Below are positions 4,503 to 47,272 of a stretch of DNA of 64,000 bases, piece after piece. Each line of letters starts with the position of its first letter. Within the stretch, counting starts at the first letter, position 1. The notes beneath the pieces are model-generated. The model was not told the origin of the DNA and did no database searches. It was given only the letters and a program-made list of their open reading frames with translations. This stretch comes from Phycisphaerae bacterium (GTDB taxonomy: Bacteria; Planctomycetota; Phycisphaerae; Sedimentisphaerales; UBA12454), in contig JAPLMW010000064.1 in the NCBI GenBank assembly GCA_026386845.1, forward strand, positions 33,427 through 97,426. Direction: 5' to 3'. Position numbers and translations under genes: made by a program.

Positions 4503-5819
4503 TTAAACGCAAACTGTCGAAGCTGACAATTGATTATATATCTGCATACATTTCTGGGCGGCATCGTCCCATTTAAGTTTTCTTACTTCATAATTGCCGT
4601 GTTCTCTTAAAGCCATCTGCAGAGGCGGATATTTTAATACCGCCACAATCTTATTGGCTATCTCGTTTACATCCCAGAAGTCCGCCTTCAAAACATGGGT
4701 AAGCACTTCCGAAACGCCGCTTTGTCTGCTTATAAGAACAGGCACATCGTTATTAAGCGCTTCGAGCGGCGCTATTCCGAAAGGTTCGGACACACTTGTC
4801 ATAACATACAAATCCGCCATTTCATAAACCTTGCGGACGTCTTCGCCTCGCAGGAAACCTGTAAACAGAACCTTGCTGCCGATTCCGAGATTGGCGGCAA
4901 GCTCTACCGCCTTTCGCATCATATCGCCGGACCCTGCCATTACGAATTTGACGTTGTCCATTACTTCGAGCACTTTTTTCGCTGCGCCGAGGAAGTATTC
5001 CGGCCCCTTTTGCATCGTGATTCTGCCGAGGAACAGCACTATCTTCTCGTCTTTATTTATGCCTATCCTGTTGAAGCTAAGGCCGTTACCGTTTCTTTCG
5101 ACGCCATTGTAAACAACTTCTACTTTGTCGCCGGTTATGCCATATCGGCTGATTATTATATTTCTGGTCAGGAAGCTGACTGCGATTATTTTGTCGGCAG
5201 CGTGCATTCCCGCCCGTTCGATATCGTAAATCATTTGGTTGACATTTTCTCCGCTGCGGTCAAATTCGGTCGAATGAATATGAACAATAAGAGGCTTTCC
5301 GGTAACCGCGGCAACAGCCATACCTGCCGGGAAGGTCATCCAGTCGTGGGCGTGAATCACGTCAAAATCTTCCTGCAGCGCCAATTTAACCGATGAGGCG
5401 GCATATCTGTGAACTTCCGTGTACATATCGCCCGCATAATGAGCCAGCGAGTCAAGACAGTTTGTCTCAACGGCTTTGCCTGCACCGCAGCGTTGCTGTT
5501 TAGCTCGTATCATAGCCTCTATCTCACGCCGATAAGCTTCGTTGCTCGCGTAAGGTTTCAGCGGAGAATCTATGGCCTTGAATTTTATATTTTTAAGATT
5601 GCGTTCGTATTCCACCAAGTTGATATCGCTGTCGTTTATATCTGCAGGCGTGCGCATCTGAACATGGGTAGAATGGGACCCCATGCTGATGGACCGAGGC
5701 AATACGAAAGTTACCTCAAGCCCCATCTTGCTCAGCGCCTTCGTCAGACCGTAGCACGCTGTGCCAAGACCGCCGCTAATGAATGGCGGAAATTCCCATC
5801 CTAACATAAATACTTTCAC
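4503..5819 (-). CDS. GT-B glycosyltransferase, glycogen-synthase-like
   Basis: 438 aa. The start MKVFMLGWEFPPFISGGLGTAC and the C-terminal SEPFGIAPLEAL (E-x7-E region) are typical of GT4/GT5 glucan synthases. Confidence 0.7.
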   Translation of the reverse strand: MKVFMLGWEFPPFISGGLGTACYGLTKALSKMGLEVTFVLPRSISMGSHSTHVQMRTPADINDSDINLVEYERNLKNIKFKAIDSPLKPYASNEAYRREIEAMIRAKQQRCGAGKAVETNCLDSLAHYAGDMYTEVHRYAASSVKLALQEDFDVIHAHDWMTFPAGMAVAAVTGKPLIVHIHSTEFDRSGENVNQMIYDIERAGMHAADKIIAVSFLTRNIIISRYGITGDKVEVVYNGVERNGNGLSFNRIGINKDEKIVLFLGRITMQKGPEYFLGAAKKVLEVMDNVKFVMAGSGDMMRKAVELAANLGIGSKVLFTGFLRGEDVRKVYEMADLYVMTSVSEPFGIAPLEALNNDVPVLISRQSGVSEVLTHVLKADFWDVNEIANKIVAVLKYPPLQMALREHGNYEVRKLKWDDAAQKCMQIYNQLSASTVCV

Positions 5820-6488: not shown

Positions 6489-6788
6489 GTTAATAATCCT
6501 CCATGCAAAAAAAAATAAGGATTCCTTTTTTATCGGCCCTTTCCGTTAAAGCCGACTTACGCCGCTTATTTTGCAGCCTTATCAGACCTTTTGCAACAAA
6601 AAAATATGCCAAAAATGCAGAATTTTATGCTCAATAGACCGTCCGGCACGTTTTTGCGGTTATTTGACCCCCCTTTTCTGCCGAAATTGGTAAGGAATGC
6701 TCTTATAGTGGTGAGCCTGCTTGTCCTGAGTAAGGTCGAAGGGTCGAATCCAATAGTGATGACTTTAGTGGTACTGGGAGTCAGAAAA

Positions 6789-13694: not shown

Positions 13695-13741
13695 TTATGC
13701 AGAAAAAGTAAGTAGGGAAACGTCGCCACGAGTGGCAACGG

Positions 13742-13978
13742 CTAAACAACTTTTGCAAGAACATGTTCGACAGTGTTATCCTCGCTGACATTCAGCCAGT
13801 TGACATTTTTGAAGGTCTTGAACCATGTTCGCTGGGCCTTTGCGAATCTGCGGGTATTGATTTTTATTTTCTCAACGGCTTTTTCGAGAGTCTCTTTGCC
13901 TGCAAGATAATCAATAATTTCAGCGTAGCCTATAGCACTGCGAGCCTGCAGGCTTAACGGTTTTTCTTCTGCGAGCAA
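13742..13978 (-). pseudogene. miaA: remnant of tRNA dimethylallyltransferase (miaA), C-terminal ~80 codons only
   Basis: SAIGYAEIIDYLAGKETLEKAVEKIKINTRRFAKAQRTWFK matches the MiaA C-terminal pattern (IGYkE...TRrfAKRQ-TWF). The ~220 N-terminal codons, including the P-loop, are absent. The reading frame closes at 14012. Confidence 0.6.
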
Positions 13979-14101: not shown

Positions 14102-14674
14102 TTATTTGGTTTTCTTATTCGCAGGGTGCTTTGGTTTTTTTGCCTTTGTCTTCATAGAGAATTCTCCGTTCGGGTCAACAAGAGCCTCTTTCCGAAGACC
14201 GGCTGCGGATTTAATCAGCTCATCTTTCTGCACCGCCACAGCCGGAGTGAGCTTGAATGTCCAGGTATATGAATCGATTTTTGTGGTGAACATGTCGGCG
14301 AAAAGGTCGAATGGGAATCTGTCTTTCAGCGGCCGTTTGAGGTTCTGGTGAGTATTGAGCGTCTGGAAGCCATCCTTTGAGATTCGCACGGCAAAATCGC
14401 CATACCATTCGAAACCCACAGTAACCGGCGATGTGCCGATTTCCTCATCATTAAGTGCGACAAGGGCTCCCTGGGGCTCGGTTATAATGGTAATTTTTCT
14501 TTCAACGCAGCCTGTGCAGAAACAAAGCACTGCAAGAACGATAATGGCAGCAATGATTCGACTTCCTTCGACTCTTTCGACTCTTTCGACTACGCTCAAG
14601 ACAGGTGCGCTCAGGACGAGGCGCTCACCATAAATAGTTCGACGCTGCTCACTATAAAATCCTTTTGACGACAT
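14102..14674 (-). CDS. PEGA-domain lipoprotein
   Basis: 190 aa. It has a lipobox LCFCTGC and a PEGA-like segment ITIITEPQGALVALNDEEIGTSPV. The N-terminal ~35 codons are encoded by a dispersed repeat (14564-14620), so the true start may be the TTG inside it. Confidence 0.65.
   Translation of the reverse strand: MSSKGFYSEQRRTIYGERLVLSAPVLSVVERVERVEGSRIIAAIIVLAVLCFCTGCVERKITIITEPQGALVALNDEEIGTSPVTVGFEWYGDFAVRISKDGFQTLNTHQNLKRPLKDRFPFDLFADMFTTKIDSYTWTFKLTPAVAVQKDELIKSAAGLRKEALVDPNGEFSMKTKAKKPKHPANKKTK
14564..14620 (-). repeat. dispersed CCTGAGC...TCGAAGG family repeat with 3x 9-bp tandem (GTCGAAAGA/GTCGAAGGA), inside a CDS
   Basis: The minus strand reads CTCGTCCTGAGCGCACCTGTCTTGAGCGTAGTCGAAAGAGTCGAAAGAGTCGAAGGA. 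It is translated as VLSAPVLSVVERVERVEG. Confidence 0.75.
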
Positions 14675-17986: not shown

Positions 17987-19423
17987 TTATTGTTGTGCGC
18001 CGGCTTTTTCAAGCATTTGCACAATATCCGCGCGATTTGCTTTTTTTGCCGACTTTAAGGCCGTTTGGCCATTGTAAGCCTTTACATTGACATCAGCGCC
18101 TTTTTGCAACAAGAGTTCGACAATTTCGGTATTTGCCGCCAGTGCCGCGGTCATCAGCGCGGTAACGCCTTTGTTAGTTCCGGCATTAACCTCAGCGCCT
18201 TTTTCGAGCAGAAGCCTGGCGACTTCCACCTGGCCATACCCCGCCGCTATCATCAGTGCCGACCTGCCGTCGATAGTCCTTGCATTGACAATAGCGCCTT
18301 TCTCAATCAGGAGCCTGACAACTTCCGTATCGCCGTTCTGCGTTGCCATTATCAGAGCTGTTACGCCATTGTCGGTTCTATTGACATTGACCTCTGCGCC
18401 TCTTTGCAGCAGGAGTTTGACGATTTCGGTGTGACGCCCCTGTGCGGCCATTATGAGGGCAGTCGCACCTGTGTCGGTTCTCCTTGGATTGACATCAGCG
18501 TCTTTTTCCAGCAGAAGTTTGATGATTTCGGTATAACCATTCTGCGCGGCCATTATCAGGGCCGTTATGCCGTTAGCAGCCTTTGCATTGACATCGGCGC
18601 CCTTCTCCAGCAGAAGCTTGACGATATCCGTATAGCCATTCTGAGCGGCCGCTATCAAAGCCGTCAAACCGCTGCCTTTTCTCTTAGCATTGACATCAGC
18701 GCCTCTTTGCAGCAAAACTTTAACGGTTTCCGTAAGACCCCTTCCGGCAGTAATTATCAGGACTGTTTCGCCATTGTCAGCTTTTGCTTTGACATCGGCG
18801 TTCTTTTCCAGCAGCAGCCCGATGATATCCGAATAGGCTTTCCTTGCCGCTATTATTAAGGCCGTTGCGCCATCACTGGTTCTCTTTGCGTTAACATTAG
18901 CGCCTTTTTCCAGCAGAAGCTTGACTATTTCCATACGGCCTTCCTGCGCCGCCATCATTAGCGATGTTGTGCCGTCGCTGTCGGCGGCGTTGACATCAGC
19001 TCCTCTTTCCAGCAGAAGCTTGACGATTTCCGTGTGCCCCCTATATGCCGCCATTCTCAGCGCCGTTACATCGCGATCGATTCTCTTTGCGTTGACATCA
19101 GCGCCCTTTTCCAGCAGAAGCCTGACGATTTCCATGTGGCCGTTTTGCGCCGCCTGTATCAGAGCCGTTGTGCCGGCGAGGGTTGCCTTGGCGTTGACAT
19201 TAGCGTTCGCAACCAGAGCAGCCTGCACGGCAGCGAGGTTGCCGTCCTGTGCGGCGCGAACCAATTGAGTATCCGCGTCCGCGACCGGAGCAGTCCGCAC
19301 AGCAGCAAGGTTACCATCCTGCGCGGCGCGAACTGATTGAGCATTCGCGTCCGGAGCGTTCACATCGGCAAAAGCAGCAGATGCCAGAGAAATACACACT
19401 ATAAAAAATAAGATTCGTTTCAC
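17987..19423 (-). CDS. secreted ankyrin-repeat protein (~13 ANK repeats)
   Basis: 478 aa. It has a signal peptide MKRILFFIVCISLASAAFA. This is followed by 33-aa repeats of the form G-TALI-AAQNG-TEIVKLLLEKGADVNAK. The DNA shows the corresponding 99-bp periodicity. Confidence 0.9.
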   Translation of the reverse strand: MKRILFFIVCISLASAAFADVNAPDANAQSVRAAQDGNLAAVRTAPVADADTQLVRAAQDGNLAAVQAALVANANVNAKATLAGTTALIQAAQNGHMEIVRLLLEKGADVNAKRIDRDVTALRMAAYRGHTEIVKLLLERGADVNAADSDGTTSLMMAAQEGRMEIVKLLLEKGANVNAKRTSDGATALIIAARKAYSDIIGLLLEKNADVKAKADNGETVLIITAGRGLTETVKVLLQRGADVNAKRKGSGLTALIAAAQNGYTDIVKLLLEKGADVNAKAANGITALIMAAQNGYTEIIKLLLEKDADVNPRRTDTGATALIMAAQGRHTEIVKLLLQRGAEVNVNRTDNGVTALIMATQNGDTEVVRLLIEKGAIVNARTIDGRSALMIAAGYGQVEVARLLLEKGAEVNAGTNKGVTALMTAALAANTEIVELLLQKGADVNVKAYNGQTALKSAKKANRADIVQMLEKAGAQQ

Positions 19424-24386: not shown

Positions 24387-24788
24387 ATGAAAAAAAGTAT
24401 TGAGGAAATCGCGAAACTTGACGGCAGGTATTCCCTGCGAGCGTTTGAATTTGTGCACGAGGGGCTTGGCCGAACTGTAAAAAAATCCTATGGCGACGGA
24501 ATTGAAAACGAAGGTCCCCATCACGTTACCGGAAGAGAGCTTTGCCTCGGCCTTGCGGAACTTGCCGGCGAAAAATGGGGCTACCTGGCAAGGGTCGTTT
24601 TAAATCGGCTCGGCATAAAATCCACTTACGACTTCGGCAGCATCGTATATCTTATGGTCGAGCATAAATGGATGTATGCCCGTCCTGAGGACACGATAGA
24701 CGAATTTAAAAATGTTTACGACTTCGAGGAAGTCTTCGAAAAAAACTTCAAATTCATCGCTACAAAACGAAAGACCGATGAGATATAA
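24387..24788 (+). CDS. conserved hypothetical protein (resembles PVC-restricted Minf_1886-type family, from memory)
   Basis: 133 aa, 6 nt after metG. It shows no catalytic motifs. The family assignment is unverified. Confidence 0.45.
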   Translation: MKKSIEEIAKLDGRYSLRAFEFVHEGLGRTVKKSYGDGIENEGPHHVTGRELCLGLAELAGEKWGYLARVVLNRLGIKSTYDFGSIVYLMVEHKWMYARPEDTIDEFKNVYDFEEVFEKNFKFIATKRKTDEI

Positions 24789-24791
24789 CGA

Positions 24792-24849
24792 TTTAGCGGC
24801 CGCCACTTGGGGCGGCCTTAAAACCCCGCCTCAAACGGCGGGGGCTAAA
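24792..24849 (+). repeat. composite REP element, copy A (upstream flank of RAYT)
   Basis: TTTAGC-GGCCGCC-ACTTGG-GGCGGCC-TTAAAA-CCCCGCC-TCAAAC-GGCGGGG-GCTAAA. This gives two GC hairpins closed by the outer 6-bp stem TTTAGC/GCTAAA. Confidence 0.9.
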
Positions 24850-25406
24850 TGAGAGGTGTAATGATAATCGCCTATCACATTGTTTTCACAACTTATGGCA
24901 CCTGGCTGCCGAATGACCCAAGAGGCTCATTTTCCAAGCAAATATATAATCAAAAACTTACAATAATCGCTCCGATAAAATATGGTAAACAAGAAAATAT
25001 ACCAAATAAAGAAAACTTGAATAAATTCTGGGCCGATACATCAGGAAAATTAAAACGCCAACCATATTTCATAGATGAGAAATCACGACAGACAATCGCT
25101 GAATCGTTTGCAAACACAATCAGCGGATTGAAATTAACAGTACCGGCCTGTGCTATAATGAAAGACCATATTCATATACTTGTTTTACGCACCGAATATA
25201 AAATCGGGTATATTGTCAACCAGCTAAAAAGTATAGCTACAAAGAAGCTAAACCGCAAAGATACTCCCTGGACAGAAGGATACTGGAAAATATTTATAAA
25301 TAATCAGGAAACATTACAATCAGCTATAGAGTATATAAACTCTAATCCTGTTTCTGCTGGTATGCCTCGACAAAATTGGAAATTTGTCAGTCCAACTTCT
25401 ATTTAG
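24849..25406 (+). mobile_element. REP-associated tyrosine transposase (RAYT; IS200-like Y1 HUH transposase)
   Basis: 185 aa. YHIVFTTYGTWLPNDPRGS, the HUH motif HIHILV, and the catalytic Tyr context AIEYINSNPV. It is a single gene bracketed by REP copies. Its stop codon lies inside copy B. Confidence 0.8.
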
Positions 25407-25459
25407 CGGCCGCCACTTGAGGCGGCCTTAAAACCCCGCCTTAAACGGCAGGGGCTAAA
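25402..25459 (+). repeat. composite REP element, copy B (downstream flank of RAYT)
   Basis: Same orientation as copy A. It differs at 3 positions, two in the hairpin loops and one in the stem of hairpin 2 (GGCAGGG vs GGCGGGG). It abuts the thyX stop codon. Confidence 0.9.
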
Positions 25460-26086
25460 TTATTGTGTATCGCTGGGATGTTCCTGGCCGATTTCAACAT
25501 CACTAAAACAAGTCGGAGCTTTATTTTTCAAAATTTTCAGTATCTCCATACAAACAATCCTGATTTCCCACTGTGCCTTTGGGCTTGTCCGAAGTTTAAT
25601 TATATGCCGCCACTCCCGGAAATTCGCTGTTACGACTATTTCGCTTGTGCAGGCATTGGGAAGGACAAACCTTGCATCCTCTTTTTTAAGTCCTTTATTA
25701 CGCCATTTGATATACATCTGCCTGATGACCTCCATATCGTCGCGGAATTCTTTCTGAAATTCCTTCGGTATCGTCGGCGGCGTTACAAAACTGAAATTAT
25801 CCTCGTCAACATATCTTTGCGACTGCTGTGAAACACTCATTAACCTGTGCCTTACAAGCTGATGCGTCATCGCGCGCGAGCAGTTTTCAATTCTGAACGT
25901 TGCGCAGGCGTGTTCCAGCGGCGAATCGTGCCCAATTTTTATCAGTTTCTGAATAAAATCCTTAGCCGAATCGGCTCCGATTTTGTCGAAACTCAGATAG
26001 CACGTCCTGCCAGCCTCTTCGATAAGCTTTTCCGCATCAGGCGTAATCGAAAGTAGCGTAACCTTTAGCTGAATATTCTTATCCAT
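25460..26086 (-). CDS. thyX: FAD-dependent thymidylate synthase
   Basis: 208 aa with the ThyX signature RHRLMSVSQQSQRY. Confidence 0.92.
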   Translation of the reverse strand: MDKNIQLKVTLLSITPDAEKLIEEAGRTCYLSFDKIGADSAKDFIQKLIKIGHDSPLEHACATFRIENCSRAMTHQLVRHRLMSVSQQSQRYVDEDNFSFVTPPTIPKEFQKEFRDDMEVIRQMYIKWRNKGLKKEDARFVLPNACTSEIVVTANFREWRHIIKLRTSPKAQWEIRIVCMEILKILKNKAPTCFSDVEIGQEHPSDTQ

Positions 26087-26121
26087 ATATATATTTCAAT
26101 TCTTCGTGTCTTAGTGCCTTG

Positions 26122-26145
26122 CCTGTCTTGAGCGTAGCCGAAAGA
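26122..26145 (+). repeat. dispersed CCTGTCTTGAGCGTAGCCGAAAGA family repeat
   Basis: Same family as 9272 and 14564. Confidence 0.6.
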
Positions 26146-26154
26146 GTGGCTGTC

Positions 26155-28047
26155 TTAAATCTGATTTATATCTATTTTTCCCGCCGTTGCAAGTGCCATT
26201 TTCACATTCCCGAACGGCGCGCTTATCGCAAAACCGCCCACTAATCCGCTTATCTGCTCCATAAGCTCTCTTGCAATCTCGATTCCCGCCTTTTTGCTGT
26301 CCTTTGCGTCTTTCGTCTTGGCCATTCTGTCGAGAATTTTTTGCGGCACAACAACCCCCGGCACTTCATTCGCCATAAACTCTGCGTTTTTAAAACTCGT
26401 AAACGGCCAAATGCCCGCGATTACCGGAATTTTACAATTGCTTGTCTCATCGAGAAACTTTTTCAGGCTGTCAGCGTCGAACACCGGCTGCGTTATGGCA
26501 AATTCCGCCCCCGCTTCGACCTTCTTTTTATATCTTTCAATTTCTCTTTTCAAATCCGTCGCGACTGGATTTGCCCCGACTCCTACGGCAAGCGATGTCG
26601 CCGAAGAAAAACCGTTACCCGCTATATCAATTCCGCAGTTCAAATCGCTGACAACCTTCGTCAGTGCAATCGAATCAAGGTCGAATACCCCCGTTGCATC
26701 GGGATATTCGCCTAATTTCGGCGGGTCGCCCGTTATTACAAGAACATTTCTGAGACCAACCGTATGAATCCCAAGCAAATCCGACTGCATCGCTATTATA
26801 TTCCTGTCCCGACAGCAGAAATGCAGAATCGTCTCCATACCGCAGCTCTGCTCGATTTTTATCGCCGTTATCATTGCGCTCAGTCTCGAACTTGCCCGCG
26901 GCCCATCGGGTATATTCACCGCGTCAACGCCCGCTTTCTGACAGATGCGCACCCTTTCTAAAAGTTCAGTTACATCCGCCCCCCTCGGCGGCGAAATCTC
27001 TATCGTTATCACCTTCTGCCCCGTGGCGAGTTTTGCTCCGAGTTTCGATTTATCCTTTAGTCCCACACTGCATTTAGCGGCCGCCGTTCGCGGCGGCCTA
27101 ACCCCGCCACTTGTGGCGGGAGCTAAATGAAATTCGGTACGCCCCGCCGAAACTGCTTTTTCCAGCGGCCTGACCGCCTTTACAATCTGTCTTATATGCT
27201 CAGGCGTTGTCCCGCAGCAGCCGCCGATGATTTTCACGCCCTTCTCATAAAATCTCTTGGCGTATTCCGCCATATATTCAGGTGTGCACATATAAAGCGT
27301 TCTGCCTTCAACGCTCCTCGGCAGACCTGCGTTAGGCTGCAATGAAATCGGCTTTGTCGTCGCTTTTTTAATTACATCAAGGCTTTCCAGCATCGCCGCA
27401 GGCCCAAGCGAACAATTCAGACCCACAGCGGCAATATTCTCAATTTCCGAAATGCTTTTTATCGCCGTATCGAGCCTGTCACCGTATAAAGTCTCGTTAT
27501 ATTCATTTATCGCTAATTGCGCCACAATTGGAAGTTCGCAAACCTCGCTGCACGCTTTTATCGCCAAAAGCAATTCTTTTAAATTCCCGAAAGTTTCTAA
27601 AAGTATGAAATCTGCGCCCGCCTCTGCTAATATTTTTATCTGATTTGAAAATGTATTTATTATTTCTTTTTCGCTGATTCTGCTTCCTTGCGCGATATCG
27701 ACGCCTAATGGCCCGACCGCACCTGCGACAAGTGCTTTATCACCGGCACATTCTTTTGCTATTTTTACCGCAGCCGAATTTATTTGCGCAAGTTTTTCTG
27801 CCAGTCCGAACCTTGCGAGTTTGAATTCGTTAGCGCCAAAGGTGTTAGTTTCGATAAAATCTGCCCCTGCATTGATGTATTGCTGATGGATTTCTTTTAC
27901 GAGGGATGGGCTTGTCAGGTTAAGTTCATCGAAGCAGGTATTTACGAATACCCCTTTGGAGTAGAGCATCGTCCCCATCGCCCCATCGCCGATGACTACC
28001 CCCTTTGCCAAAATTTGCGTTAAATTTTTCTTTTCCATTTTTATCAA
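26155..28047 (-). CDS. bifunctional homocysteine S-methyltransferase / 5,10-methylenetetrahydrofolate reductase
   Basis: 630 aa. The N-terminal ~300 aa form an S-methyltransferase (Hcy-binding) domain ending in GGCCGTTPEHI. The C-terminal ~290 aa are MTHFR-like (ISPPRG..., VNIPDGPRA, LVITGDPP). The linker is encoded by REP copy C. Confidence 0.85.
   Translation of the reverse strand: MIKMEKKNLTQILAKGVVIGDGAMGTMLYSKGVFVNTCFDELNLTSPSLVKEIHQQYINAGADFIETNTFGANEFKLARFGLAEKLAQINSAAVKIAKECAGDKALVAGAVGPLGVDIAQGSRISEKEIINTFSNQIKILAEAGADFILLETFGNLKELLLAIKACSEVCELPIVAQLAINEYNETLYGDRLDTAIKSISEIENIAAVGLNCSLGPAAMLESLDVIKKATTKPISLQPNAGLPRSVEGRTLYMCTPEYMAEYAKRFYEKGVKIIGGCCGTTPEHIRQIVKAVRPLEKAVSAGRTEFHLAPATSGGVRPPRTAAAKCSVGLKDKSKLGAKLATGQKVITIEISPPRGADVTELLERVRICQKAGVDAVNIPDGPRASSRLSAMITAIKIEQSCGMETILHFCCRDRNIIAMQSDLLGIHTVGLRNVLVITGDPPKLGEYPDATGVFDLDSIALTKVVSDLNCGIDIAGNGFSSATSLAVGVGANPVATDLKREIERYKKKVEAGAEFAITQPVFDADSLKKFLDETSNCKIPVIAGIWPFTSFKNAEFMANEVPGVVVPQKILDRMAKTKDAKDSKKAGIEIARELMEQISGLVGGFAISAPFGNVKMALATAGKIDINQI
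27073..27127 (+). repeat. composite REP element, copy C, in-frame inside a CDS
   Basis: TTTAGC-GGCCGCC-GTTCGC-GGCGGCC-TAA-CCCCGCC-ACTTGT-GGCGGG-A-GCTAAA. On the minus strand it is translated as LAPATSGGVRPPRTAAAK, between the two enzyme domains. Confidence 0.85.
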
Positions 28048-28058
28048 CCACCAATAAT

Positions 28059-28115
28059 GTCATTGCGAGGTCGCAACCGAAGCAATCTGTCATTCCCGCG
28101 AAAGCGGGAATCCAG
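28059..28115 (+). repeat. dispersed palindromic repeat pair (the type that yields IPAFAGMT / SLRGRNRSNL pseudo-ORFs)
   Basis: ATTGC...GCAAT and TCCCGC-GAAA-GCGGGA hairpins. It explains ORFs 27926-28150 and 28057-28269. Confidence 0.7.
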
Positions 28116-28224
28116 AATTTTATCTGTTCCGGAAAAACTCCACAACTCAAAACTAAGAACTAAAAACTCAAAACTTATTATATTCTCCCCCCATCTTTTT
28201 GCGAGTGTTTTGTTCTACTGCTTC

Positions 28225-28461
28225 TTATTTTTTATTATTAATATTCTCTTGTTTATCTTCCTTATTTGATTTTCGAGCATCCCATATTTTCCCCGCCGCA
28301 ACAACGAGAACAAACACCCCAAAAAATATAATATACAGAAGAGCCTCTTCTTCCAAAGGAATAGAATGAATACGCATAATCACAAAACAAACAATGAAAA
28401 ATATCACCGATACAATTATTAATGCTTTAAATTGATTAGTAGTCATATTATTTGTCGCCAA
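28225..28461 (-). CDS. small two-TM membrane protein
   Basis: 78 aa with two hydrophobic helices and a K/E-rich tail. Its start overlaps the stop of the upstream 571-aa gene by 14 nt, which suggests translational coupling. Confidence 0.55.
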   Translation of the reverse strand: MATNNMTTNQFKALIIVSVIFFIVCFVIMRIHSIPLEEEALLYIIFFGVFVLVVAAGKIWDARKSNKEDKQENINNKK

Positions 28462-30351: not shown

Positions 30352-30835
30352 TACATTGGGTGATGCTTCACGCATTAGTAAGCCAACTAAAACATGGTCT
30401 TAAAACCATGGTTTTCCTCAAAGGGTTGTAGCCGAAGTTTCACTGTCAGTCCACAACCCTAATCTCATGGGAGATACAGAAGATGAATTATTTTATTTTC
30501 TTCACGGCTAAGCCGTGCTTGAATTCGAGAGGGTTATAACCTTTTATCACTGTTCAGTCATAACCCTAACTCGTGGGAGGAGGAGAAAACTCTTTATGAG
30601 CTTATATAATTATCACGGTCCCAGCACCGTGCTTGCTCTCGAGCGGGCTGTAACCGACGTTTTCACTGTCCGATCACAAGCCCGACTCATTTGGGAGGAG
30701 GAGAAAACTTCCTGAGCCCTATATTATCACGGTCCAAGCCGTGCTTGCTCTTGAGCGGGCTGCAATCATTTATCACTGTCCGATCACAACCCACTTTGGA
30801 GGAGGAGAAGAAGTTATTGTTTCTTTTCTCGCCTC
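30305..30835 (-). ncRNA. candidate multi-module structured RNA (strand tentative)
   Basis: Compensatory changes occur in hairpin B between units. Two C-A mismatches on the plus strand become G-U pairs on the minus strand in unit 3. The U-tract terminator is on the minus strand only. Unit reading frames are not conserved, which argues against coding. Confidence 0.4.
30393..30813. repeat. four tandem ~110-114-bp structured units
   Basis: Units start at 30393, 30503, 30614 and 30728. Each has hairpin A (CACGG-loop-CCGTG), hairpin B (GGGTTAT/ATAACCC and variants) with the conserved loop TCACTGT, and then GGGAGGAGGAGAAAAC. Confidence 0.85.
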
Positions 30836-47247: not shown

Positions 47248-47272
47248 TCCTTCGACCTCGCTCAGGACAAGG
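47248..47272 (-). repeat. dispersed CCTGAGC...TCGAAGGA family repeat (inverted orientation)
   Basis: The plus strand reads TCCTTCGACCTCGCTCAGGACAAGG, followed by a GATTGAAGATTGAAGATT low-complexity stretch. Confidence 0.6.

Follow-up and report, generated by a model that had tools for sequence, protein, structure and literature searches.

Short palindromic repeats that are translated as part of a host protein have been described before. Di Nocera, De Gregorio and Rocco 2013 (PMC3733652) reported, for repetitive extragenic palindromes (REPs) tagged with GTAG or CGTC, dimers in Opitutus terrae that are joined head to head across a spacer of 1-2 bp, REPs that provide TAG stops to neighbouring open reading frames (ORFs), genes for REP-associated tyrosine transposases (RAYTs) flanked by REPs, and REPs lying wholly inside ORFs; more than half of the intragenic inserts were dimers or groups and encoded 20-30 residues, host genes and peptides being listed in the supplement. 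Rickettsia palindromic elements (RPEs; Ogata et al. 2000, as summarised in PMC3733652 and PMC10969869) are in-frame palindromic inserts in unrelated genes. In Pseudomonas and E. coli, REPIN/RAYT systems (Bertels and Rainey; Ton-Hoang et al.; PDB 4er8) combine inverted REP doublets with a Y1/HUH transposase gene that has the repeats on both sides. Here we describe a REPIN-like element, copy C, in a 64,000-nt stretch of a Phycisphaerae genome of the Sedimentisphaerales (contig JAPLMW010000064.1; hereafter the window), which is read in frame by a bifunctional gene for homocysteine S-methyltransferase and methylenetetrahydrofolate reductase (MTHFR) at the position of the interdomain linker. We consider it very probable that a REPIN copy entered the linker DNA of this gene when it was already fused, that the native linker was mostly lost, and that the repeat is now tolerated as a tether between the two domains.

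With its closing stem included, copy C is 57 nt long (27072-27128), slightly more than the 55 bp (27073-27127) given in an earlier note on this DNA, which had otherwise correctly recognised from the letters a third REP copy, in the same orientation as the other two, inside the coding sequence 26155-28047. Two 7-bp GC stems sit inside the 7-bp closing stem, making a three-way structure with a predicted single-stranded DNA fold of -26.6 kcal/mol (z = -6.2) that was equalled by 0 of 200 shuffles. For the hairpin-1 pattern, 0.00 chance matches were expected in the window, and a relaxed half-element pattern had 10 matches there against 0.13 expected. We noted that the half pattern TTAGCSSCCGCC-N6-GGCGGSS had one match per strand inside every copy; since the half, TTAGC-stem-loop-stem, thus occurs once on each strand, two tagged REPs are joined head to head in the element, as in a REPIN. 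Features of REPs that we observed were the hairpin, the repetition, the inverted doublet and the flanking of a RAYT gene, but the location is not strictly extragenic, with copy C and ~8 other sites lying within ORFs, and the terminal tag was TTAG (ATTTAGC) in most of the copies listed and not GTAG or CGTC. We read TTAG as a variant tag, having TAG in common with GTAG. In comparison with miniature inverted-repeat transposable elements, a 7-bp terminal inverted repeat was present and no clear target-site duplication was seen at three repeat-free comparisons, only a TAA(A)C that overlaps the end of the element. The element is a dimer of TTAG-tagged REP hairpins, i.e., of REPIN type. An ordinary linker rich in Ala, Pro and Gly might in principle resemble a REP by chance, and the native linker DNA does itself contain GGCGGC and GCTAAAC motifs; this explanation is refuted by a match extending over the full 57 nt, with both hairpins and the 7-bp closing arms, against the expectation of 0.00, and by the repeat-free alleles considered below, which form no such hairpins. 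A degenerate single unit, TTAGCCGTTGCCACTCGTGGCGACG, is found at window positions 13721-13745 on the minus strand; it fits the half-element pattern with three mismatches, and no ORF of at least 80 aa overlaps it.

The host protein matched NCBIfam NF006396 (PRK08645) over residues 7-625 with 742.6 bits (cut-off 453), and Pfam placed S-methyl_trans (PF02574) at residues 18-292 and MTHFR (PF02219) at residues 337-599. Between them the minus-strand ORF reads ...SAGRTEFHLAPATSGGVRPPRTAAAKCSVGLKDK... (within the longer stretch ...EKAVSAGRTEFHLAPATSGGVRPPRTAAAKCSVGLKDKSKLG...), and here the earlier note was right both about the frame, L308-K325 mapping to 27126-27073, and about the position between the two domains. 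The codons of H307 and C326 are partly REP-encoded. A six-frame table of copy C has one stop-free frame per strand, and the gene reads the stop-free one. In the AlphaFold2 model of the host protein, residues 302-325 have a predicted local distance difference test score (pLDDT) below 50 and lie after a confidently modelled helix (282-300) and before the MTHFR barrel, which fits a flexible tether; the same region is the least conserved part of the alignment of orthologues. Searching a 30-residue linker peptide against 1.84 billion representative proteins gave one match, to an unrelated repetitive protein, so that at the level of cluster representatives the peptide is not a widespread motif.

Homologues of the host protein were searched for at E <=1e-30, and 120 of the 8000 returned were listed, with source names from Sedimentisphaerales, Phycisphaerae and other Planctomycetota; both Pfam domains were present in 120 of these 120. 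Aligning 29 orthologues gave the linker consensus ARPAxIEVKPxxKQAVRQKPAELKDK. The earlier note had suggested asking whether orthologues without the repeat show the same linker peptide, and they do not: their linker is RPVAIEVSPAAKQAVRQKAAQ, and the REP-type linker (HLAPAASGGVRPPRVAAAKC) was seen in one of the 29, P0001 (94% identity), which belongs to the metagenome-assembled genome (MAG) GCA_049691175.1. We aligned the linker DNA of the window with that of L001, L002 and L003, the loci of orthologues P0001, P0002 and P0003, respectively. In L002 and L003, which are repeat-free, 63 nt (21 codons) lie between the conserved ...GCAGTTTCGGCG and TAAA(A/G)GATAAATC..., and in the window and L001 the corresponding interval is 84 nt (28 codons), consisting of the 57-nt repeat plus flanks of 16 and 11 nt that are barely like native sequence. 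The alignment indicates that the event replaced most of the native linker and added 7 codons net (+21 nt). It was not a clean insertion of 18 or 19 codons, and in this respect the 18-aa insertion that the earlier note had raised as a possibility needs correcting. At all three repeat-free comparisons (L002 at ~2640-2665; the L002/L003 linker; L068/L069 at ~1880-1900) we saw TAA(A)C at the junction, where it coincides with the element end CTAAA(T/C); it may be a target motif or microhomology. At none of the three was the insertion a clean one of element size. An ACCGAA upstream of both this copy and a copy in lipA was considered as a shared flank motif and set aside as a post hoc coincidence.

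The repeat-bearing allele appears to have lasted and to be functional. L001/L018, with the same repeat and remodelled flanks and an intact 628-aa ORF, come from an independent assembly. Synonymous divergence (dS) between the window and L002/L003 was 0.35-0.38, and between the window and L001 ~0.44. For the latter pair the ratio of nonsynonymous to synonymous divergence (dN/dS) was 0.116 in the S-methyltransferase domain and 0.053 in the MTHFR domain, with domain dS values of 0.43-0.45. These values indicate that both domains are under purifying selection and that the allele persisted through substantial divergence in two lineages, which supports the idea, already in the earlier note, of a repeat tolerated as an interdomain linker. 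A tree of the window, L001, L002 and L003 was star-like, with 7-10 informative sites per pairing, and so assigned the insertion to no single branch. We also asked whether the junction could be an assembly artefact, a mis-join at the repeat or a pseudogenising insertion, with no continuous protein, given that REP copies often confuse or break short-read assemblies and that many RAYT homologues were on very short contigs. We find this highly improbable, as the same junctions occur identically in an independent MAG assembly which, at dS ~0.44, is not the same data copied, and as the ORF is intact in both with domain dN/dS <=0.12. Nor was there a signal for a split product: a promoter and terminator scan found no intrinsic terminator in the repeat on the mRNA strand, site counts being at shuffle level, and an Rfam scan of 24600-28300 with E up to 1 gave no match. 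The earlier note had offered as an alternative that the repeat marks where two formerly separate genes were joined. Its position exactly between the two domains suits such a fusion scar, but the idea is refuted: the two-domain architecture is that of a curated equivalog family (NF006396, at the 742.6 bits given above), both domains occur in every listed homologue, the 29 aligned orthologues all have a linker at this position, and the repeat, found in just one of them, overwrote an ordinary linker and is confined to two closely related lineages.

Copy C is the third member of its family in the window, and a RAYT gene lies 1.6 kb away from it, flanked by the other two, copies A and B, which are on the same strand as copy C and 95% identical to each other (repeat families D8 and D9). 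The RAYT product matched Pfam PF01797 (Y1_Tnp) with 37.4 bits against a cut-off of 23. By sequence, a phmmer search of the PDB gave nothing meaningful and no match to 4er8. Structurally, AlphaFold2 prediction from 35 homologues gave a model (mean pLDDT 75.8) whose top Foldseek match was 4er8_A, the E. coli REP-associated transposase with a bound REP hairpin (E 7.5e-6; template modelling scores 0.49/0.54), and the TnpA structures of IS200/IS605 ranked lower. H107 and H109, the HIH of DHIHIL, together with Y121 were invariant or nearly so across the 35 homologues, and several RAYT homologues are annotated RayT at JGI. The repeat-RAYT-repeat layout (REPtron) is also found in L018 and L006, and in these as in the window the upstream repeat provides the RAYT start codon at its end (GCTAAATG; window 24846-24851) and the downstream one the stop codon in its ATTTAG (25401-25406). 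Downstream of thyX in L002 and L003 there was no RAYT gene and no flanking repeats, the L003 contig stopping ~165 nt beyond thyX; at that spot both have two convergent genes only a few bases apart (TAACG, then TTTATTG). The family was presumably mobilised by this Y1 transposase.

A strict pattern found 9, 6, 4 and 2 matches in four related MAGs of Sedimentisphaerales/Planctomycetota, and there were further copies in JGI metagenome contigs; the scan requires exact matches and underestimates copy number, which is nevertheless low relative to classical REPs (at least nine strict matches in one MAG). When copies were grouped by their flanks we counted ~24 distinct sites, ~9 of them in frame inside recognisable genes, so the search for other in-frame copies that the earlier note had recommended was productive within Sedimentisphaerales. 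Besides the linker of the fusion gene (window, L018), these sites are in lnt, between LNT_N and CN_hydrolase (L005, L016 and L063/65/67, at least three distinct lineages); in a PTPS/QueD-like gene, upstream of the PTPS domain (L007, L011); inside the radical-SAM domain of lipA (L008); inside the domain of a DUF2400 gene (L010); inside DUF4131 of comEC (L012); upstream of the UvrB-interaction domain of mfd (L023); in the middle of a Cys-rich protein, known without a Pfam scan (L046); and in the N-terminal region of a putative scpB, identified by eye (L059). In lnt, lipA, DUF2400 and comEC, Pfam domains flank or span the in-frame copy. The repeat-bearing LipA is 309 aa long versus 284-285 aa in its closest orthologues, and its alignment to a solved LipA structure (PDB 4u0o) is interrupted exactly at the repeat peptide. 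From these sites, translated intragenic copies would appear to be a lineage-wide habit of this Sedimentisphaerales family. Intergenic copies lie 0-90 nt from gene ends and several provide TAG stop codons. Among candidates not accepted as intragenic, the open frame at L020 covers two genes (AP2/HNH and ABC ATPase) and the copy was counted as intergenic, and the long ORF at L013 had no Pfam match and was treated as spurious. Pattern matches in Dryocola, Devosia, Terriglobia, Vicinamibacteria, Dehalococcoidia and a proteobacterial MAG had no second hairpin or closing arm and were dismissed as chance GC-rich hairpins. In a more distant relative, whose fusion protein is 84% identical and has the native linker, a single repeat (L055, 5044-5100) separates a 136-aa gene from the fusion gene. 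The locus has been rearranged around this repeat, as both thyX and RAYT are missing there.

The sequence of events that we favour begins in an ancestor shared with MAG GCA_049691175.1, in which one copy would have entered the linker-encoding DNA of the already fused gene, landing in the only frame that is free of stops. Most of the native 21-residue linker would have been lost in the same or later events, and the gene would now yield one polypeptide in which a 28-residue segment links the two domains. Of this segment 19-20 residues are REP-encoded; it has a high content of Pro, Gly, Ala and Arg, and its structure is predicted at low confidence. The insertion would have survived because the site is permissive, and the repeat, being tolerated, would by default now do the job of the linker; nothing suggests selection of the peptide itself.

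Several observations nonetheless count against this account. First, some intragenic copies are 56 or 59 nt long, which is not a multiple of three. Second, two intragenic sites were set against repeat-free alleles, the linker (+21 nt) and lipA, which differs by a net +69 nt from the DNA of two repeat-free orthologues; both lack a clean element-sized insertion, and they therefore do not demonstrate the insertion chemistry. Third, the best NCBIfam model for the transposase, REP_Tyr_transpos (NF047646), gave 58.4 bits, under its curated cut-off of 80. Finally, the repeat does not change as neutral sequence might. Between the window and L001, stems of the copy differ at 1 of 42 positions and loops plus spacer at 5 of 15 (Fisher p = 0.004), and over six orthologous pairs at five sites the corresponding counts are 4 of 252 and 24 of 98 (Fisher p = 4e-11), a stem change being ~15x rarer than a loop change between orthologous intragenic copies. 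Fourfold-degenerate sites of the fusion gene differ by 23% between the window and L001, and dS in the linker is 0.16 versus 0.43-0.45 in the domains. A purely neutral passenger does not predict such a contrast; for it to arise, the hairpins must be under selection, the copies must undergo gene conversion, or repair must favour palindromes or hairpins. All three fit, and the data at hand do not separate them. Whichever applies, the hairpins are constrained or homogenised at the nucleic-acid level even in a coding linker.

This contrast is the main support for a rival explanation in which the intragenic repeat is kept for a nucleic-acid function, as an mRNA structure that pauses ribosomes or blocks 3'-5' decay or as a DNA site for RAYT or another hairpin binder, with the peptide a by-product. 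Beyond the conserved stems of copy C and the other pairs, despite the 23% fourfold divergence, and the low linker dS, it can draw on a local mRNA fold of -51 kcal/mol over 121 nt around the repeat and on several intragenic copies that lie between domains, e.g., in lnt and the fusion gene. We think it unlikely all the same, as gene conversion or palindrome-restoring repair gives the same pattern without a host function, as other copies are inside catalytic domains (lipA, DUF2400) and not at boundaries, and as close relatives do well without the repeat. A broader version, in which the REPIN family is actively maintained inside essential genes and not merely tolerated, its hairpins serving the host or RAYT at the DNA or RNA level and its coding compatibility having evolved, strikes us as quite unlikely; in it the hairpins might, for example, pause translation at domain boundaries or act there as barriers to mRNA decay.

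The loops, which are hypervariable across the family, also bear on a proposal of the earlier note that the likeness of the hairpin-2 loop of copy C (ACTTGT) to the hairpin-1 loop of copies A and B (ACTTGG) hints at recombination between REP halves. We found recombination of this kind to be unnecessary. At the PTPS-gene site the hairpin-2 loops of L007 (2358-2416) and L011 (6293-6351) are exact reverse complements (ACTTGG versus CCAAGT) with the stems unchanged, and the ACTTGT of copy C is likewise the flip of ACAAGT, the commonest hairpin-2 loop among the copies listed. The two hairpins contain one and the same unit in opposite orientations, so that a hairpin-2 loop, once flipped, necessarily resembles a hairpin-1 loop.

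Table 1. Positions of copy C, its host gene, and the RAYT locus in the window.
Feature	Position	Strand	Basis or remark
REP head-to-head dimer (REPIN-like), copy C	27072..27128	+	Sequence, DNA fold, family match to A and B
Copy C left closing arm, ATTTAGC	27072-27078		7-bp closing stem
Copy C hairpin 1, GGCCGCC / GTTCGC / GGCGGCC	27079-27098		Sequence
Copy C spacer, TAA			Between hairpin 1 and hairpin 2
Copy C hairpin 2, CCCCGCC / ACTTGT / GGCGGGA	27102-27121		Sequence
Copy C right closing arm, GCTAAAT	27122-27128		7-bp closing stem
Bifunctional homocysteine S-methyltransferase / methylenetetrahydrofolate reductase gene, 630 aa	26155..28047	-	Pfam PF02574 + PF02219, NF006396
REP-encoded linker codons L308-K325, peptide LAPATSGGVRPPRTAAAK	27073..27126	-	ORF translation, six-frame table, pLDDT
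Upstream remodelled flank, G302-F306 and first base of H307 codon	27129..27144	-	DNA alignment with L002, L003; not REP and not clearly native linker
Downstream remodelled flank, last two bases of C326 codon and S327-G329	27061..27071	-	DNA alignment
Predicted peptides across the linker junctions, e.g., TEFHLAPATSGGVR, CSVGLK			
REP dimer copy A	24791..24850	+	Left flank of RAYT gene; end GCTAAATG gives RAYT start codon
RAYT gene (Y1/HUH tyrosine transposase), 185 aa	24849..25406	+	Pfam Y1_Tnp, NCBIfam, Foldseek
REP dimer copy B	25401..25460	+	Right flank of RAYT gene; ATTTAG gives RAYT stop codon

Other repeats were seen in and around this region. Just upstream of the start of the fusion gene, window positions 28058-28125 hold two small palindromic repeats, GTCATTGCGAGGTCGCAACCGAAGCAATC and GTCATTCCCGCGAAAGCGGGAATCC, and spurious ORFs over them read SFPRKRES and IPAFAGMT, which are close to the R. 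conorii CGTC-1 REP/RPE signatures SFPRKRES and WIPAFTGMT (PMC3733652 supplement). A third family, CCTGTCTTGAGCGTAGCCGAAAGAGT and its relatives, occurs as inverted copies at 26122-26147 / 14580-14605 and 6720-6742 / 47249-47271 (pairs I9 and I24); one copy of this family lies between thyX and the fusion gene, and in L013 (~4520-4560) hairpin 2 of the REP copy is broken up by a similar sequence. In the S-methyltransferase domain of orthologues P0012, P0014 and P0016 there are 8-residue inserts, STSSPQAG and QVDSTGSP (alignment A1, columns 160-167 and 225-232), which may be other short in-frame repeat insertions. Elsewhere in the window, positions 18080-19350 hold a long array of at least 10 tandem repeats of 99-102 nt, ~33-34 codons per unit (families D1-D3 and D5), probably a repeat-protein gene, and positions 30437-30792 hold four copies of a ~57-nt repeat at a spacing of 107-116 nt (families D7, D11 and D12).

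The likeness to the GTAG and CGTC REPs (PMC3733652) is extensive, comprising short GC-rich hairpins, an xTAG end tag, head-to-head pairing with a spacer of a few bases, flanking of RAYT genes, TAG stops given to neighbouring genes, and some copies wholly in ORFs; the two sides were set against each other by description. Differences are the TTAG in place of GTAG in most listed copies and the low copy number, and also that the published cases add a segment, whereas copy C replaces a linker. Opitutus terrae belongs to the same Planctomycetes-Verrucomicrobia-Chlamydiae (PVC) superphylum as our host. The Sedimentisphaerales (Phycisphaerae) and the host genes found here are outside the PMC3733652 survey. 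As summarised in PMC3733652 and PMC10969869, RPEs are likewise translated as extra peptide segments where fold and function allow, but the first reported were ~150 bp, compared with 57 nt here, and they simply add a loop where copy C replaces a linker; association with RAYTs is not mentioned in those accounts of RPEs. The RPE host is an obligate intracellular alphaproteobacterium, and ours is, by the source names of the orthologues, a Planctomycetota lineage. The likeness is one of behaviour only. The REPIN/RAYT systems share with this locus the inverted REP doublets and the Y1/HUH transposase gene that is itself repeat-flanked. Classical REPINs are extragenic and number hundreds per genome. 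In the present family, unlike in those, ~9 of the 24 sites are intragenic, and the RAYT is divergent (no phmmer match to 4er8 and a score below the NCBIfam cut-off). Within the NF006396 family, finally, the host gene is a full-length member with both domains and a linker; the linker is 7 residues longer than those of its closest repeat-free relatives and is mostly repeat-encoded.

Since translated intragenic REP dimers and the Rickettsia RPEs are already published, the present case is a clear new example and not a new principle. It extends the published phenomenon of translated intragenic REPs to Phycisphaerae and to new host genes, and it provides a natural case in which a mobile palindromic repeat overwrites the linker of a central-metabolism enzyme without breaking the enzyme, with the ancestral allele and a second lineage available for comparison. 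For annotation, the Pro-, Gly-, Ala- and Arg-rich inserts of ~20 residues in these MAGs are repeat-derived, being neither sequencing errors nor lineage-specific functional motifs. What we find most interesting is the lineage-wide frequency of intragenic copies together with the contrast between stems and loops, which, occurring as it does in coding sequence, raises the question of a constraint on these repeats at the level of the nucleic acid.

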